Source: a virus. Taken from it: DNA of 64,000 bases. The notes below the pieces were generated by a model that made no database searches, was not told the origin of the DNA, and saw only the letters and a program-made list of their open reading frames with translations. The stretch covers positions 6,150 to 70,149 of IMG/VR virus record IMGVR_UViG_3300031867_000025. One strand, 5' to 3'. Position 1 is the first letter of the stretch. The number at the start of each line of letters is the position of its first letter. The position numbers and the translations under genes were made by a program. This document shows positions 38,626 to 53,826 of the stretch, piece after piece.

Positions 38626-39244
38626 CCCCTGGACCAGCTATCATCACTCCTCATCTTCCATCGTAAAGACCATCGTTTACAGCTTTCTTCTTCTCCAGAT
38701 CTACACCTCATGTGCATATACACCCACCTTCTAGGAGTCATACACCCGCGCCCGCAGCACACAAGCGCACCAGAAATTTTGCACAGCTCTGCCAGTTTCC
38801 CCCACACCCCTATCCAGCGCGGGCCGCTCTTCAGATCTGGACCCCGAGGCCATATATTAATTATTAATAGGTGCTGCGAAGCAGATTCACCCACCGTCAA
38901 GGGGGGGTTTAGCGCGTTAAACTGCTAAAAATTAACGCTTTAGCACGTTAAACTGTAACACTTTAAAGCATTATACGGCATTTTTACTAAAAAATACGGT
39001 AAAAATGTCTTTTTTTTGTGCATTTTTGCGTGATTGTTAAAAATTTAACGGTAATTTATGGGATTTTGCACAAAAAAACGGTGAAAAAATTTGTGATTTT
39101 TGTTTATTTTTGAGCTTGACAAGTTGAAAAAACGGCGCAGGCAGAGCCATTATCGCGCCGTTTGCTATAACTAACTAAAGTTAGTTAAGACTAACTGCCC
39201 GGGCTGGTTAGTTGTGACTAATTAACAATAAAAAAAAGAAGCGG

Positions 39245-39478
39245 TTAAACCGCTTCCTTCTGCATTCTCAATTCTCTGTTTAATTCGCGGACGATGCGCT
39301 TTGTCTCTTCCAAACCTATTTCAGAAACAGCGTTAGAGATTTCAAAGGAGATAGCTATTTTAGCTTTTTGAATCTGTCTTTCTCTTTCTTTTCTAGCTCT
39401 AATATCTTCTAAGAGAAGAAGCATAGCTTCAACCTCATCCTTAGTTAAAGAGTATCCCATAAAAGAAGTCGTATTCAT
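39245..39478 (-). CDS. Hypothetical small protein
   Basis: ORF with a sigma70 promoter and RBS cassette upstream. The terminator GAAGCGGTTTAACCGCTTC plus a T-run lies downstream. Confidence 0.4.
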   Translation of the reverse strand: MNTTSFMGYSLTKDEVEAMLLLLEDIRARKERERQIQKAKIAISFEISNAVSEIGLEETKRIVRELNRELRMQKEAV

Positions 39479-39966
39479 TTTGTTTCTCCTTTCTTTTTGA
39501 TGTATTCATTATAACAAAAGATTATAAAGTTGTCAAGTCTGAATTTTATTTGACTTATCAGAAAATTTGCCCGGGCCAGTTAGGTTTCCCTAACCAGCCC
39601 CTTATTTGATTTTTACTTTCCACCATGGAACAAATTTAAAATTTTTTCCACCGATGCACAAGATTATTATCCCCTTAAAAAACGGAACTTTAGTCAAAGA
39701 AGGCCCATAAAGCCAGTCATTAAATTCAAAAAACATTTTTATTCCTCCCCTGGATCAGGATAAATCCGCATTTTACAAGTTAAATAATTGTATTTCATCA
39801 GTTCGCGCCGACCCCATCCACGTTTAATCAAAATTTTTTTGATGCCGTCCGCTTTGATGCGTTCCCGCTCATTTTCAAATTCTTCTATATTCTTTATTTT
39901 TACTAAGGTTGATACGGGGCGGTATTTACCTGATTTATCAAAAAGCGTTACCTGTACTTTCAATTT

Positions 39967-40173
39967 TCACATCTCCTCTCTAAAGCGTGGAAGCATTTCA
40001 TCATCCCACCATTTTACAATTTCCTGTGCCTCAGGGGAATCATATCCGAGTAATTGATTAGTGACAAACATTACAACCCCATAGCATCTAGTCGTTGCGC
40101 TGTGTGCGTCCGCCCTAGATTTCAGAACCATGTGCATCTCATACTCACACCATGCTTTTACTTTTTCGATCAT
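39967..40173 (-). CDS. Hypothetical small protein
   Basis: RBS GAAAGGAAGTAAAAAAG precedes ATG at 40173. Confidence 0.4.
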   Translation of the reverse strand: MIEKVKAWCEYEMHMVLKSRADAHSATTRCYGVVMFVTNQLLGYDSPEAQEIVKWWDDEMLPRFREEM

Positions 40174-40331
40174 CTTTTTTACTTCCTTTCTTTTGATGTA
40201 CTTATTATAACAAAAGATTGTGGAATTGTCAAGTCTGAATTTTAGGCTAGTTATCTGACAATTCGCCCGGGCAGTTAGTTGCAACTAACTCTAGTTAGAA
40301 GAAAAACAGGGGGTTGCCCCCCTGTTCATCC

Positions 40332-40682
40332 TCACGCCAAGGTGAAGTAAGATACTTTCTTTTCGACGATCTTCACAACACGCCCATCCCCCGTGTCAGG
40401 CAGAAGCTGACGCAGAAGAGCGGTGATTTTGGACGAGCTGTAATCAGCCAGACGCTCATCAAGAAGCATGTCCTTGACTCTCATAGGTGCGTCCGCTTCA
40501 GCAAGCACCGCACAGATGGCGTCTTTGATGCCGACGTTTTCGGTCTGAGTCTTAGTAGGTTTCTTCACAGTGTTGCGAGAATCCAAAAGATCAATCTGGT
40601 GCTTCAGGAATTCTACCATTTCGGCATTAGCGGCAACAGCTTCAACGTTCATAATGGCAGTAAACATTTCTCTCTTTGTCAT
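40332..40682 (-). CDS. Winged-helix DNA-binding protein, paralogue 1
   Basis: The C-terminus DERLADYSSSKITALLRQLLPDTGDGRVVK...YFTLA is shared by three paralogues. Confidence 0.45.
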   Translation of the reverse strand: MTKREMFTAIMNVEAVAANAEMVEFLKHQIDLLDSRNTVKKPTKTQTENVGIKDAICAVLAEADAPMRVKDMLLDERLADYSSSKITALLRQLLPDTGDGRVVKIVEKKVSYFTLA

Positions 40683-41090
40683 AGTTCATACTTCCTTTCT
40701 TAATGGCTTTGTTCTTTTGATGTATTTATTATAACATCTTTTTAAGTGTTTGTCAAGGGGTTTTTTATTTTTTTTCGTTTGGATTTTTGAGGCTGCTCAT
40801 TTTGTGGGCGCCCGCACCTATTACCTCTCCCCTTGACATGTATTATTATATCAAAAGATTTGTAAAAAAGCAAGTCTGACTTTTATTAATTTTTTTCAGT
40901 ATTGTCAGAAAATTCGCCCGGGCAGTTAGTTGCAACTAACCCAGATTAGAGATAACTAACTCTGGATAAAGAAAGACACCCGTCAATGACGGGTGCCTAT
41001 CAAAGAAAGGAGGAAAATCGAATATTTAAGGTATTGAGAAGGTGGGAGGGGACTTGCACCCCTCTGACGGCTTTCCGCCACCTTGCGCCC

Positions 41091-41477
41091 TCAGGCGAGG
41101 GCAAAGTAAGCAACTTTCTTTTCGATGGTACGTACCACCTGACCCGTTCCAGTATCAGGCAGAAGCTGACGCAGAAGAGCGGTGATTTTGGAAGAGCTGT
41201 AATCAGCAAGTCTTTCATCGGCAATGAGGTCTTTCACCCTCAAAGGAGCTTCAGACTCACCGAGAATGGCGAGAATGGTTTCTTTAATACCTTCATTTGC
41301 CACCTGTGTTTTGGTGGGCTTAGTAGAGCTATGTTTACGTTTTTCAAGCTGGGCTTTTAAAGCCTCAAGCTTTTCTTTCACCTCATCCCAAGAAAACTTA
41401 TCATCATCAGGATCAACATCAGGATTCATAACATCCAGAGCAAAGTTGATAGCATCTACATAAGTGAGGTTAGTCAT
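41091..41477 (-). CDS. Winged-helix DNA-binding protein, paralogue 2
   Basis: Carries the same C-terminal wHTH. Confidence 0.45.
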   Translation of the reverse strand: MTNLTYVDAINFALDVMNPDVDPDDDKFSWDEVKEKLEALKAQLEKRKHSSTKPTKTQVANEGIKETILAILGESEAPLRVKDLIADERLADYSSSKITALLRQLLPDTGTGQVVRTIEKKVAYFALA

Positions 41478-51686: not shown

Positions 51687-51764
51687 AGTATGTACCTCTC
51701 TTTCATTTGATGTACTTATTATAACAGAGGCTTGGCAGGTTGTCAAGCCTCTTTTTCATTTTTT

Positions 51765-51944
51765 TTATCTGATAATGTGAAGCATCCTGAGGTTATTCTG
51801 TGTGGTTAATGCCTGAGTAGCATCAGTATTAACGTTCTGTCCAGAAGCAATGGCAATTATCAGGATAACACAGAGTGCAATTATTACAACCGAAAGAATT
51901 AATAAACCCCAATCATCTACCAGATCTTCTAACCATTCGAACAT
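51765..51944 (-). CDS. Small membrane protein
   Basis: ORF. Confidence 0.3.
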   Translation of the reverse strand: MFEWLEDLVDDWGLLILSVVIIALCVILIIAIASGQNVNTDATQALTTQNNLRMLHIIR

Positions 51945-52727
51945 TATGTGTACCTCTCTTTCATTTGATGTACTTATTATAACGCCTCCGGTCAAATCTG
52001 TCAACCCCTTTTTTGAAATTTTTTATTGTCAGAATATTCTGTTAAATACCTTAACTAACCTTCATTAGTCTTGACTAACTAATGTTAGTTAGTCAAGACT
52101 AATGTTAGTTCAGATTAAGTAATATTAGTTAGTCTGAACTAACACTAGTCTTGACTAGCCTTAGTTAGTTCAGACTAACTAATATTAGTTAGTTTTAACT
52201 AACATTAGTTAAGACTCGCTTTGGTTAGTTCAGACTAACTAATGTTAGTTAAAACTAACTAATATTAGTTAGTCTGAACTAACTCATCGCCCCCTTTTTT
52301 TATTGTCAGAATATTCTGCTAATTACTCGATTCTCACAAACGTGATTTAAGGATTAAACTAACCTGAGTTAGTTCAAACTAACCCGAGTTAGAAAAGCCT
52401 AACTATAGTTAGTCATGTCTAACGGCGCGCGAGGGTGACAAGGGAGCGTGAGCGCGCCGCCAAAAAGAAAGGGAGCTTAGTGCTCCCTGTTCCATGCGTG
52501 GCAGTATGCCATAAAAGCCAACCCTACAATTAAAAGAACCTGTGTCATTTTCGTGTTCTCCTTTCCTTTGATGAACTAAGTATACCACCTGAACCGGGAA
52601 AAGTCAATAGGTCAAAATACACAAAAAACTAACACAGAATTTGTGCAACCTATACAATAAATGAATCTCGTGGCGCTGCGACCCACAGCGCCACGGCCAA
52701 GAAAAAAGAAGGCTTGCGCCCTCTTTT

Positions 52728-52910
52728 TTAAATTATTTCCTCGATGTAATAAACGTCTGAAGTCTTTTGTTTATAGAATCTCTCAATATCAGCCTTATGA
52801 TTAGCAATAAAGACCTCAGCCTTTTCACGAGTTGGGAAAGGTTTTCCTATCATGAAAGAGTCTTCTCCAAAACCGGCTTCTTCTGGAACCATTACATACA
52901 CTGCGAACAT
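52728..52910 (-). CDS. Hypothetical small protein
   Basis: ORF. Confidence 0.35.
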   Translation of the reverse strand: MFAVYVMVPEEAGFGEDSFMIGKPFPTREKAEVFIANHKADIERFYKQKTSDVYYIEEII

Positions 52911-53170
52911 TAAGATGTCCTCCTTTCCTTTGATGAACTAAGTATACCACCTGAACTTTGACTTGTCAACTCTTTTTTTAAATTTTTTTATTTTCAGAAT
53001 ATTCTGCTAATTACACGATTCATACAAACGCACTTTTAGGATTAAACTAACTTTGGTTGGTCTACACTAACCAAAACTAAAAAACTTTAGCCCCCTATCT
53101 ATTAAAAACTCGCGCCGAGTGGGCTGTGCTCGGCGCGGCCAAAAAGAAAAGAGGGCTCGCGCCCTCTTTT

Positions 53171-53404
53171 TCAGCTCCAATTGTTCCAGTCAACAATGTC
53201 CACCCGGCTGATCATCTTAGGTCTCCTGAACAGTTTCTTCTCCATGGTCACTCGCCTGATCACTCCCCCATCAGCCAGCTGATAGGACTTATGTTCCTTG
53301 TATGCTTCCCATGCCTCCCTCAAGGTCCGGTAGTATACGTGGTTTCCGAAGTATCCTCCATAGAAAAAGGTGTGCTCGTAGATGGTATAGGTTTTGGTCA
53401 TCAT
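53171..53404 (-). CDS. Hypothetical small protein
   Basis: ORF. Confidence 0.35.
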   Translation of the reverse strand: MMTKTYTIYEHTFFYGGYFGNHVYYRTLREAWEAYKEHKSYQLADGGVIRRVTMEKKLFRRPKMISRVDIVDWNNWS

Positions 53405-53826
53405 GGTTTGTATCTCCTTTCTTTTGATGAACTAAGTATACCATGCAAATCAGGAAAAGTCAATAGGTAAAAATACACAAAAAATCACACACAAAATTGT
53501 GCACTTTGCTACTAAAATAAAACTCGGTGCGCTGTGGATTGAAGCGCTCCACAGCGCACCGGCGTCTAAACGCAAAGTTAAATTAAATGTTTTTACTACG
53601 GGGTGTTTGCTCATTTGAAATTTTAAAAATTTTTTCAAGCTAGCGGGGGGTAGCTTTCAGGATTTCTGAGCCACACACTCACACACATGCGTGGTCTCGA
53701 CAATTCTTCGATGAAAAGTTTTTTTGTTTTGGAAAAAGGGTTCTTCGATGAAAAGTTTTTTTGTTTTGGAAAAAGGAAAAGGGAAAACAACTCTTCAATA
53801 GACAACTCTCCGTTGGAGAGTTGTCT

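Follow-up and report, generated by a model that had tools for sequence, protein, structure and literature searches.

A cassette-organised, probably early gene module with putative host-type operators in a TAG-recoded phage

The DNA analysed here is a stretch of 64,000 nucleotides (positions 6,150 to 70,149 of the IMG/VR virus record IMGVR_UViG_3300031867_000025), hereafter the window, whose minus strand carries at 39100-53500 a block of ~28 small genes with 31 promoters and arrays of operator-like sites. With somewhat better than even confidence, we read this block as an immediate-early module that is transcribed from host-type promoters, carries operators of the host DtxR type and possibly of the CodY type, and is reshuffled cassette by cassette. 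The host sigma-A RNA polymerase would fire every unit at once upon DNA entry, a strong Shine-Dalgarno (SD) sequence near the 5' end would also stabilise the mRNAs, and recombination between the conserved promoter-leader segments adds, deletes and moves cassettes. The metal-loaded DtxR-family repressor of the host would bind the GTTAG/CTAAC sites, and CodY may bind a second element. Two alternative outcomes are proposed: either early transcription would be coupled to the iron and nutrient status of the host, or the units of 1-3 sites together with the 11- and 16-unit arrays would titrate the repressor off the host iron-uptake genes.

Promoter cassettes and their recombination

A search for TTGACA-N16-18-TATAAT reveals 23 matches in the window against 0.10 expected, 21 of which are minus-strand matches within 39.5-52.0 kb. 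When one mismatch per hexamer is allowed, 31 minus-strand promoters are obtained, from 53,463 to 39,536, and 21 of these are perfect. The spacer is 17 nt in all 31, inside the range of 16-18 nt anticipated in an earlier, sequence-only inspection of this DNA (the original prediction), and the block promoters have the hexamers and spacing of sigma-70/sigma-A promoters (TTGACA and TATAAT, 17 +/- 1 nt apart). Aligned on the -35, they read AAAAAAgGg-TTGACA-N17 (often ending TGn)-TATAAT/TATACT-aAgTA-CATCAAAaGAAAGGAG-N~8-ATG, with spacers that are mostly dissimilar from unit to unit. A search of the window for the 16-mer leader CATCAAAAGAAAGGAG, tolerating up to 3 mismatches, yields 25 copies (1.4 expected), of which 19 are inside the block; the leader starts 5 nt past the -10 instead of the ~7 nt first given. 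In 20 genes the ATG stands 58-60 nt beyond the first position of the -35, and the anatomy of a unit comprises an A-tract, the promoter, a fixed leader of ~23-25 nt, a strong SD and then one or more hairpins or double terminators.

The ~28 genes called in the block, which are mostly orphan and mostly separate transcription units, and their 31 promoters agree well with the ~30 small minus-strand genes behind near-consensus promoters that had been predicted. The further claim that each gene has a promoter and a terminator of its own holds only in part. An individual promoter is present for 25 genes, whereas g25-g27 share one, the HNH gene is without a promoter, and six promoters (43292, 43159, 41970, 41865, 41697 and 40873) have no real open reading frame (ORF) behind them. 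A hairpin followed by a T-run is found at ~13-15 genes, whereas at the remaining genes the hairpin overlaps the next -35 or the T-run is missing. Pfam and PHROG searches with 27 block products leave almost all of them orphans, and PDB sequence searches of g12, g14 and g17 give no match. The recognisable products are just a DEDD-type exonuclease (g17) and a protein similar to HAD-type 5'-nucleotidases (g16, by the PHROG and Pfam searches). The host-takeover or anti-defence roles first suggested for the small proteins are putative, and the orphan proteins can be listed as candidate factors of host takeover.

The window is phage DNA, with plus-strand tail and portal genes flanking the block. A minus-strand tRNA cluster (13309-25419; 18220-18294 within it) comprises 21 genes, including that of a CTA-anticodon (amber suppressor) tRNA. 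In-frame TAG is abundant in the plus-strand late ORFs (5 in the 2,084-codon frame at 505-6756 and 11 at 60298-62067), and the minus-strand genes contain zero, the sole exception being the inserted HNH gene; TAG is the stop codon of 1 of the 27 non-HNH block genes (g10). As judged from its codons, the early block uses the standard code inside a TAG-recoded, tRNA-rich phage related to phAss-1. We infer, as part of the favoured explanation, that the phage is large and that its host belongs to gut or rumen Bacillota of the Clostridia type. The block is probably early because its promoters follow the sigma-A consensus, its genes keep the standard code and its orientation diverges from that of the packaging and head genes, in line with the hyper-modular early region proposed originally. 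phAss-1 (OQ749652; 'Caudoviricetes code 15 clade') is a TAG-recoded gut phage with suppressor tRNA and a predicted Clostridia host, and the paper describing it makes no mention of promoters (PMC10607447). The last 14 kb of phAss-1 carry 23 such promoters, some of them stacked orphan promoters, although the relation is distant and these 14 kb contain a single GTTAG-N6-CTAAC site.

The alignments indicate that the cassettes are paralogous copies. Seven regulatory regions of ~260 bp each are mutually alignable in the order terminator, optional 20-bp repeats, GC-rich long-loop hairpin, three GTTAG/CTAAC sites, CAGAATATTCTG, A-tract and promoter, which confirms the common architecture expected of the intergenic regions. 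Among the relatives of the window, L014 is 99.7% identical, L004 and L005 are 86-96% identical, and L006-8, L009-11, L013, L015 and L016 are more distant; a megablast search of the block against phage records gives no match. Dense promoter arrays are present in all these relatives, and L003, L009, L015, L016 and phAss-1 have 20-30 promoters each. A comparison of the window with L004 reveals that genes 4, 6, 7, 9 and 11 have no L004 counterpart, that L004 has three extra genes, that gene 8 is on the other side of gene 5 in L004, and that gene 10 is found there 9 kb away behind a different promoter. At two window-L004 junctions the crossover falls inside the shared leader and ribosome-binding site (RBS). 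Additionally, the 16-unit array is shorter in L014 by exactly one 60-bp (three-unit) block. From these alignments, which show a mosaic synteny with L005 as well as L004, close relatives differ by gain, loss and moves of whole cassettes and by crossovers in the promoter-leader-RBS segment. The promoter cassette is mobile, as it was originally termed, in the sense of recombination between repeated cassettes, and no autonomous mobility is seen.

The architecture belongs with two known kinds, those of the SPO1 module and of the promoter-early stem-loop (PeSL) cassettes, and the host-operator arrays are the new part. The host-takeover module of Bacillus phage SPO1, covering genes 37-60, and the block both span ~12-14 kb with ~25 small, mostly orphan early genes (PMC6873191, PMC7414437), and both combine strong host sigma-A promoters, strong RBSs and terminators in a form suited to reading by the host RNA polymerase. 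The SPO1 genes are organised in multi-gene operons (PMC6873191), whereas nearly every gene of the block has its own promoter, 31 in all, and no host-type operator arrays are described for SPO1. The small early genes, strong promoters and RBSs, and terminators of the SPO1 type are thus all found in the block, and PHROG and Pfam searches of its products detect no homology to SPO1 gp37-gp60. According to Stewart et al. 1998, the SPO1 module reportedly has 12 operons. Other hallmarks of a module of the SPO1 type are a position within the terminal redundancy and products that turn off synthesis in the host.

PeSL cassettes of T4-type phages likewise repeat a sigma-70 promoter, an AT-rich upstream tract and a stem-loop before orphan genes (PMC2839356, PMC4122927). 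The stem-loop stands in a variable register, sometimes over the -35, in both systems, and cassette recombination explains the insertions, deletions and replacements between close relatives (PMC2839356). The same repeated promoter, AT-tract and stem-loop are found in the block, where the indels between relatives are bounded by cassettes; the block differs in belonging to a phage of unrelated lineage with a Gram-positive-type host and in having a fixed leader and, in many units, long operator-bearing upstream regions. Excision of mini-circles is a further trait of PeSL cassettes. The idea that regulatory cassettes serve as recombination substrates would thereby be extended to Gram-positive-type phages. 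The module represents an extreme insulated early layout of one promoter per gene in the poorly known TAG-recoded Clostridia phages, with early genes that keep the standard code in a recoded phage, and its 31 units offer a matched set of promoter, 5' untranslated region and terminator parts for Bacillota.

GTTAG/CTAAC sites and a CodY-like element

The palindrome GTTAG-N6-CTAAC occurs in 34 exact copies in the window against 0.04 expected, all of them within the block, and alternates with CTAAC-N4-GTTAG to give a 20-bp period. One to three copies stand at fixed positions upstream of ~15 promoters, in addition to the arrays of 16 and 11 units. Where L004 and L005 can be aligned with the window, they are identical to it by 100% in the -35, 98.9% in the pentamers, 97.4% in the -10 and 94.4% in the leader, as compared with 90.6% in coding sequence, 83% in the N4 spacer and 77% in the N6 spacer. 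By this measure the GTTAG/CTAAC pentamers are under strong purifying selection, and their conservation far above that of their spacers argues that they are the footprint of sequence-specific recognition.

One genome per bacterial or archaeal species was scanned for the exact double site GTTAG-N6-CTAAC-N4-GTTAG-N6-CTAAC (36 bp, 20 specified bases), for which we estimate a chance expectation of ~1 match in 596 Gb. At least 120 contigs contain the double site; they represent bacteria of the gut and rumen that are spread over several phyla, with many Bacillota among them. The genes starting adjacent to it were clustered into groups, which among the matches listed include 36 FeoA proteins, 14 membrane proteins without assigned function, 9 DtxR-family repressors (Fe_dep_repress + Fe_dep_repr_C) divergent from feoA, and 9 extracellular solute-binding proteins of the ABC-transporter type, whose metal specificity is not established. 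In the bacterial feoA promoters, the first site lies over the -10 (TTGACA-N10-GTTAGca-TATACT-AAC) and the second extends to the leader; a matching feoA operator occurs, for example, in Faecalitalea cylindroides ATCC 27803 (L030). In light of this gene neighbourhood, from which alone the binder is assigned, we conclude that the GTTAG/CTAAC palindrome of the phage is a likely copy of a feoA-type, DtxR-family operator from the host. The two transcription-factor regulons of the original prediction are accordingly recast: the sites would not be phage-specific operators of its winged helix-turn-helix (wHTH) proteins, as the GTTAG site equals a likely host DtxR-family operator, and CAGAATATTCTG and the box described below share a CodY-like core. 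A likely DtxR-family/feoA operator common to many uncultured gut anaerobes is thereby defined, and a formerly anonymous palindrome would now connect, in a testable way, the early transcription of the phage with the iron homeostasis of its host.

The LexA box (CGAAC-N4-GTTCG) was dropped as an identity for the GTTAG/CTAAC site, because the two are unlike at the critical G and the site is better accounted for by its feoA/dtxR context. An Rfam search returns only sub-threshold 'miRNA' matches, which are caused by the palindromic arrays. In Gastranaerophilales (Melainabacteria-type metagenome-assembled genomes; L020, L028, L036, L039, L045 and others), the double site precedes a conserved protein of 330-370 aa without a Pfam family, a candidate new member of the iron regulon as judged by the position of the site.

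The spacing is also specific among viral contigs, where N6/N4 is found in 53, N7/N3 in 7 and N5/N5 in 0. The number of viral contigs with the trait is at least 53, and in many of them the promoters are just as densely packed: consensus promoters reach a density of 5 or more per 10 kb in 31 of the 53 site-bearing viral stretches. Larger arrays occur elsewhere, with 32 sites at 3950-4850 of L174 (IMG/VR) and eight identical 20-bp units at 3380-3560 of L065; a TRF scan of seven relatives (L003, L006, L009, L012, L013, L015 and L016) detects no long array, and such arrays are not taken as general for the lineage. A DtxR-family ORF is found neither in the window nor in 71 phage-like loci.

The tox gene of corynephages, a lysogenic-conversion gene, is under the control of host DtxR through one operator over one promoter. 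The present phage would likewise bear an operator of a host DtxR-family iron-dependent repressor (for DtxR biology, see PMC7762939), but with 34 exact sites upstream of many promoters and promoter-less arrays, and with a spacing other than that of the 19-bp box; signs of lysogeny are absent from the window. It is a tentative and rather doubtful possibility that this virulent phage carries operator decoys, multiplying with the replication of its DNA, which would titrate the iron repressor and perhaps CodY and so switch on Feo and nutrient genes, or that the sites gate the early programme by iron.

At least four classes of upstream element are distinguished, rather than the two families originally described, and families A and B have the common core AATnTTCTGAMAAT ~19-25 nt upstream of the -35. 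The box AATTCGCCCGGGCAGTTAG is present in 6 copies at up to 3 mismatches, in addition to degenerate ones, and CAGAATATTCTG in 5 perfect copies and 1 single-mismatch copy against 0.35 expected. Five of the six CAGAATATTCTG copies are exactly 25 nt upstream of the -35, the distance of ~25 bp reported at first for this 12-bp palindrome, and the sixth precedes an array, not a promoter. An exact search of viral contigs for the CCCGGG box gives no match.

The CodY consensus is the 15-nt AATTTTCWGAAAATT, pairs of which overlap by 6 nt in a 24-nt arrangement (PMC10415144). The family A/B core matches this consensus at 12-14 of 15 positions, and motif pairs of the block, offset by 9 nt, resemble the 24-nt arrangement of CodY operators (PMC10415144), a likeness of sequence only among paralogous copies. 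With up to 3 mismatches, the CodY 15-mer gives 33 matches against 16 expected in an AT-rich context and with paralogous copies. The 24-nt arrangement with up to 4 mismatches gives 6 sites, all upstream of early promoters, where 0.13 hits are expected, equivalent to ~0.07 sites since a palindromic pattern registers on either strand; the copies are again paralogous and the context AT-rich. One relative carries TTCTGACAA repeats at a 9-bp period. The second element therefore resembles overlapping CodY boxes as a lead only, and the GCCCGGGC core of the box stays unexplained by this likeness. A limited literature search finds no CodY control of phage early promoters.

Several observations weigh against the module as we interpret it. 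A canonical intrinsic terminator is present for only about half of the genes, and the early timing is read from sequence alone. The phage sites do not overlap the core promoter: they either precede the -35 by ~33-130 nt or belong to arrays that have no promoter. Since the host feoA sites lie over the -10, simple occlusion cannot be assumed. The canonical DtxR/IdeR iron box is the 19-bp TTAGGTTAGCCTAACCTAA (PMC7762939), which the sites do not match: the pentamers are the same, whereas the spacing is N6/N4 instead of N1, and the DtxR-family assignment therefore draws on gene neighbourhood. A phage protein could also have evolved to read a host-type site. The CodY-like copies are not independent because they are paralogous, and the L016 box conserves CCCGGGCRATTGT and not the CodY-like part; together with the AT-rich context, these two points are why the CodY likeness is treated as a lead.

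Winged-helix paralogues and alternative explanations

The three wHTH paralogues recognised earlier are supported by a structural model and by fold matches. Metagenomic homologues of the 116-aa paralogue number 149, no Pfam family covers it, and the relative contigs that encode such homologues are mostly from rumen-type samples. The AlphaFold2 model of this paralogue is a winged helix with a pLDDT of 92.4, the top Foldseek matches are all winged-helix regulators (Fur/PerR, ArsR, MarR, PadR and TubR types; weak E values of 0.03-0.1), and the family profile weakly matches the winged-helix domains of MCM and Hop2. As modelled, the three paralogues have the winged-helix fold (helix-turn-helix plus beta-hairpin wing), and these triplicated proteins are probably DNA binders. 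The true N-terminus, MTK..., is set by 150 homologues, and a 4-codon mini-ORF ATGCACTATGACTAA is conserved over each winged-helix start codon (42945-42960, 41477-41492 and 40682-40697, minus strand).

Each winged-helix gene is preceded by 2-4 stacked promoters, and the three multi-promoter modules align with each other. The outermost stacked transcript opens with TGTC(A/G)A(A/G)(A/G)GG(A/G)AAG, a purine-rich, SD-like start without a start codon that is conserved from L003 to phAss-1. A strong 5'-proximal SD stabilises Bacillus mRNAs, including that of phage SP82 (PMC7509114), which provides a rationale for the orphan-promoter units and for the fixed short leader. A 5' stem, in which TGTCAAGAGG pairs with CCTCTTGACA of the next promoter, is predicted in 5 of 6 folds; it has no covariation support because own-pair and cross-pair complementarity are equal (9.12 vs 9.04).

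The winged-helix proteins are central to the alternative that survives best, in which the GTTAG/CTAAC sites, the CCCGGG box and CAGAATATTCTG would be operators for phage regulators, chiefly the over-expressed paralogues, whose role would be to silence the early promoters or set their timing; the likeness to host operators would then be a coincidence or a copied repressor specificity. Shut-off or timing of early promoters has precedents in TF1 and gp44/50/51 of SPO1 and in p4/p6 of phi29. The top fold matches to DNA-binding wHTH domains, the stacked promoters before each paralogue and the restriction of the sites to the early module are consistent with such a role, and consensus promoters would need repression rather than activation. 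The distribution of gene and site does not follow this pattern consistently, as L009-11 and L016 encode the wHTH gene without GTTAG sites, L006-8 have four, and the gene is found in just 12 of the 53 site-bearing viral stretches within the sequence examined. Additionally, the paralogues exhibit no detectable homology to DtxR-family DNA-binding domains (a truncated DtxR was rejected at an hhalign probability of 1.8%), and bacteria widely carry the identical double site at their feoA/dtxR loci. Because of the missing DtxR homology and the inconsistent co-occurrence, the wHTH proteins are not favoured as the binders of the GTTAG sites, and the alternative as a whole is considered unlikely.

Type II/III plasmid centromeres are similar iteron arrays bound by small ribbon-helix-helix or wHTH proteins. 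The 20-bp arrays may by analogy be centromere-like or origin iterons that act in partition, replication or a pause of DNA entry, with an incidental proximity to promoters; the 11 and 16 tandem units, the 60-bp super-period, the change of copy number between near-identical genomes and the presence of TubR among the weaker fold matches point in this direction. We regard this as very improbable, given that the same site stands in 1-3 copies at fixed places upstream of ~15 promoters and appears as a transcriptional operator in bacteria. Centromeric repeats lie next to a partition NTPase operon, whereas the arrays of the block have no such neighbour: PHROG and Pfam searches recognise no ParA, ParM, TubZ, other partition NTPase or partition protein, or initiator-like protein in the block. 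A last explanation, that the intergenic regions share neither ancestry nor regulation but converged on the host consensus, with upstream motifs as neutral repeats, could account for the mostly unrelated promoter spacers and for a consensus -35, -10 and SD that are selectable in any highly expressed early gene, but it is hardly credible and already largely refuted by the paralogy of the seven ~260-bp regions and three multi-promoter modules, by the pentamer identity of 98.9% against 77-83% in the spacers, and by the crossovers between relatives in the shared leader.

Layout of the module and neighbouring features

All genes and promoters of the module listed here are on the minus strand, and they are given from the highest coordinate down. 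The first, g01 (53171-53463; 77 aa), has the promoter TTGACT-17-TATACT, the consensus leader, tandem terminators and the family D upstream element TTGCACAA/TTGTGTA. It is followed by g02 (52728-52969; 60 aa) with a family B promoter, g03 (52477-52607; 23 aa) with a family D promoter, and the hydrophobic g04 (51765-52004; 59 aa), which has a perfect promoter of family B. A hairpin overlaps the -35 of g05 (51564-51746; 40 aa, hydrophobic), and the hairpin GGGGGTTGA/TCAACCCCC lies over that of g06 (51310-51549; 59 aa). After g07 (51007-51278; 70 aa), family B elements accompany g08 (50693-50946; 64 aa; CAAAATATTCTG), g09 (49652-50139; 142 aa) and g10 (48971-49367; 112 aa; TAG stop). The -35 of g11 (48581-48960; 106 aa) is again overlapped by a hairpin, and g12 (47787-48313; 155 aa), g13 (47510-47757; 62 aa) and g14 (46793-47311; 152 aa; family C upstream region) follow. 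The promoter of g15 (46465-46724; 64 aa) is of an AT-rich-spacer class that also occurs in the tRNA region.

The product of g16 (45779-46293; 151 aa) is the HAD/5'-deoxyribonucleotidase-like protein, and that of g17 (44917-45664; 230 aa) is the DEDD-type exonuclease-like protein (phrog_20187), with the motifs DTET, HNASFD and HTGLED in its sequence. The nearest cultured homologues of g17 are in ~140-kb Enterococcus phages, and a more distant one is in phAss-1 (31.6% identity). The HNH homing endonuclease gene (43774-44292; NUMOD4 + HNH_3, free-standing, 4 in-frame TAG, 29% GC) is inserted between the stop codon and the terminator of g18 (44400-44843; 127 aa), occurs in L014 but in neither L004 nor L005, and constitutes a recoded gene within the standard-code early region.

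Beyond g20 (43373-43678; 81 aa; family A box), an orphan promoter (43264-43292) has a transcript without an ORF that opens with the purine-rich, SD-like TGTCGAAAGGGAAAGG, and a stacked promoter (43131-43159) has only a 9-codon mini-ORF behind it. Winged-helix paralogue a (42595-43019; 116 aa) has a proximal promoter and a 74-nt leader. Next come g22 (42050-42420; 103 aa), an orphan promoter (41942-41970) whose spacer is identical to that of promoter 43292, two stacked promoters without a gene (41837-41865 and 41669-41697), and paralogue b (41091-41540; 128 aa) with its proximal promoter. A further orphan promoter (40845-40873) has a TTGCTT -35 and a transcript that opens with TGTCAAGGGGAGAGG, and it precedes paralogue c (40332-40756; 116 aa), which also has a proximal promoter. 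The operon g25-g27 (39602-40232; 68, 74 and 44 aa) is served by a single family A promoter, and g28 (39245-39536; 77 aa) is the last unit, with a terminator.

The 16-unit array (50317-50632) consists of 20-bp units of GTTAG-N6-CTAAC-N4 with a 60-bp super-period, and the 11-unit array (52055-52283) has CAGAATATTCTGACAATAAAAAA on both flanks. A triple site of 7 pentamers is located downstream of g03 (52359-52423), triple sites are also found upstream of the promoters of g14 (47344-47397) and g16 (46326-46390), and other sites are upstream of those of g09 (50217-50281), g10 (49445-49498) and g12 (48364-48459). Short arrays are present at 49550-49607 (2.9 units), 48499-48559 and 47448-47496 (2 units). 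Two sites and a CCCGGG lie upstream of the g17 promoter (45687-45738), two sites lie past the terminator of paralogue a (42526-42559), and a terminal cluster of 5 pentamers with an inverted CCCGGG box marks the module end (39171-39222).

The family A composite box at 44870-44905, CTAAC-TGG-CCCGGG-CGAATTGTCTGACAATTC, includes a perfect 17-bp palindrome, and that at 43695-43744 combines GTTAG-N6-CTAAC, CCCGGG and the CodY-like element. The box at 43319-43359 contains a CodY-like 15-mer with 1 mismatch, and that at 41987-42036 the 24-nt overlapping CodY-like pattern with 3 mismatches; further copies are at 40891-40960, 40249-40298 and, in degenerate form, 39553-39594. Among the family B elements, that at 52989-53012 has CAGAATATTCTG within a 24-nt CodY-like double site (3 mismatches), that at 52301-52324 has no promoter and stands next to the 11-unit array, that at 50966-50989 has one mismatch in the 12-mer, and that at 50159-50182 has 3 mismatches to the 24-mer; the others are at 52024-52047 and 49387-49410.

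A third upstream element, TTGCACAA...TTTTTGTGCAA/TTGTGTA, stands directly before a TTGACT -35 at 53480-53520 and 52620-52660. It is widely conserved in the lineage (L002, L006-7, L012, L013 and L065), and in phAss-1 the promoters with this element face GC-rich hairpins and not ORFs. Minus-strand GC-rich hairpins of the module are found at 53111-53137, 52669-52695, 52423-52459, 49509-49545, 48458-48496, 46390-46426 and 42482-42518. That at 53525-53561 has a long loop and is followed by a T-run (second terminator), that at 50281-50318 separates an array from a triple site, that at 47407-47444 is double, and that at 39131-39162, with a T-run, is the final terminator of the module. The -35-overlapping hairpins at 51532-51555, 51726-51752 and 51264-51280 read on the plus strand as hairpin-plus-T-run terminators and could block antisense transcription into the module.

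A second class of promoters has TTGAAA or TTGATA, a conserved AT-rich spacer ending in AAAAATTTTTGW, TATAAT and then ATAT. It is scattered over the tRNA region (27167, 24018, 23508, 22800, 20798 and 16702, minus strand), is also found at 46724 and 35253/35289 and in L006, L012, L013, L015 and L016, and possibly represents middle promoters.

Two copies of a perfect 37-bp direct repeat (53704-53776) separate the first cassette from the SPFH/Band-7 gene (53827-54816). At the other side, the non-coding module end (38417-38619 and 39000-39130) contains an inverted -35, motifs of the TTGTGCAA type and AT-rich tandem repeats whose units measure 20, 39 and 21 bp. Each of the contigs L004 and L005 ends ~300 bp past the point homologous to the module end. 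The region may represent an origin, the terminus of the genome or the boundary of a repeat. Further along the minus strand, a protein similar to the major vault protein (MVP) with MVP shoulder and Vault_3 domains is encoded at 30752-33226 and recurs beside an SprT-like gene in L013 and L015, and a Thg1-like tRNA-His guanylyltransferase is encoded at 29809-30693. A DUF2828/DUF7788 protein, which we take to be TROVE/Ro-like, is encoded at 11182-12669 on the same strand.

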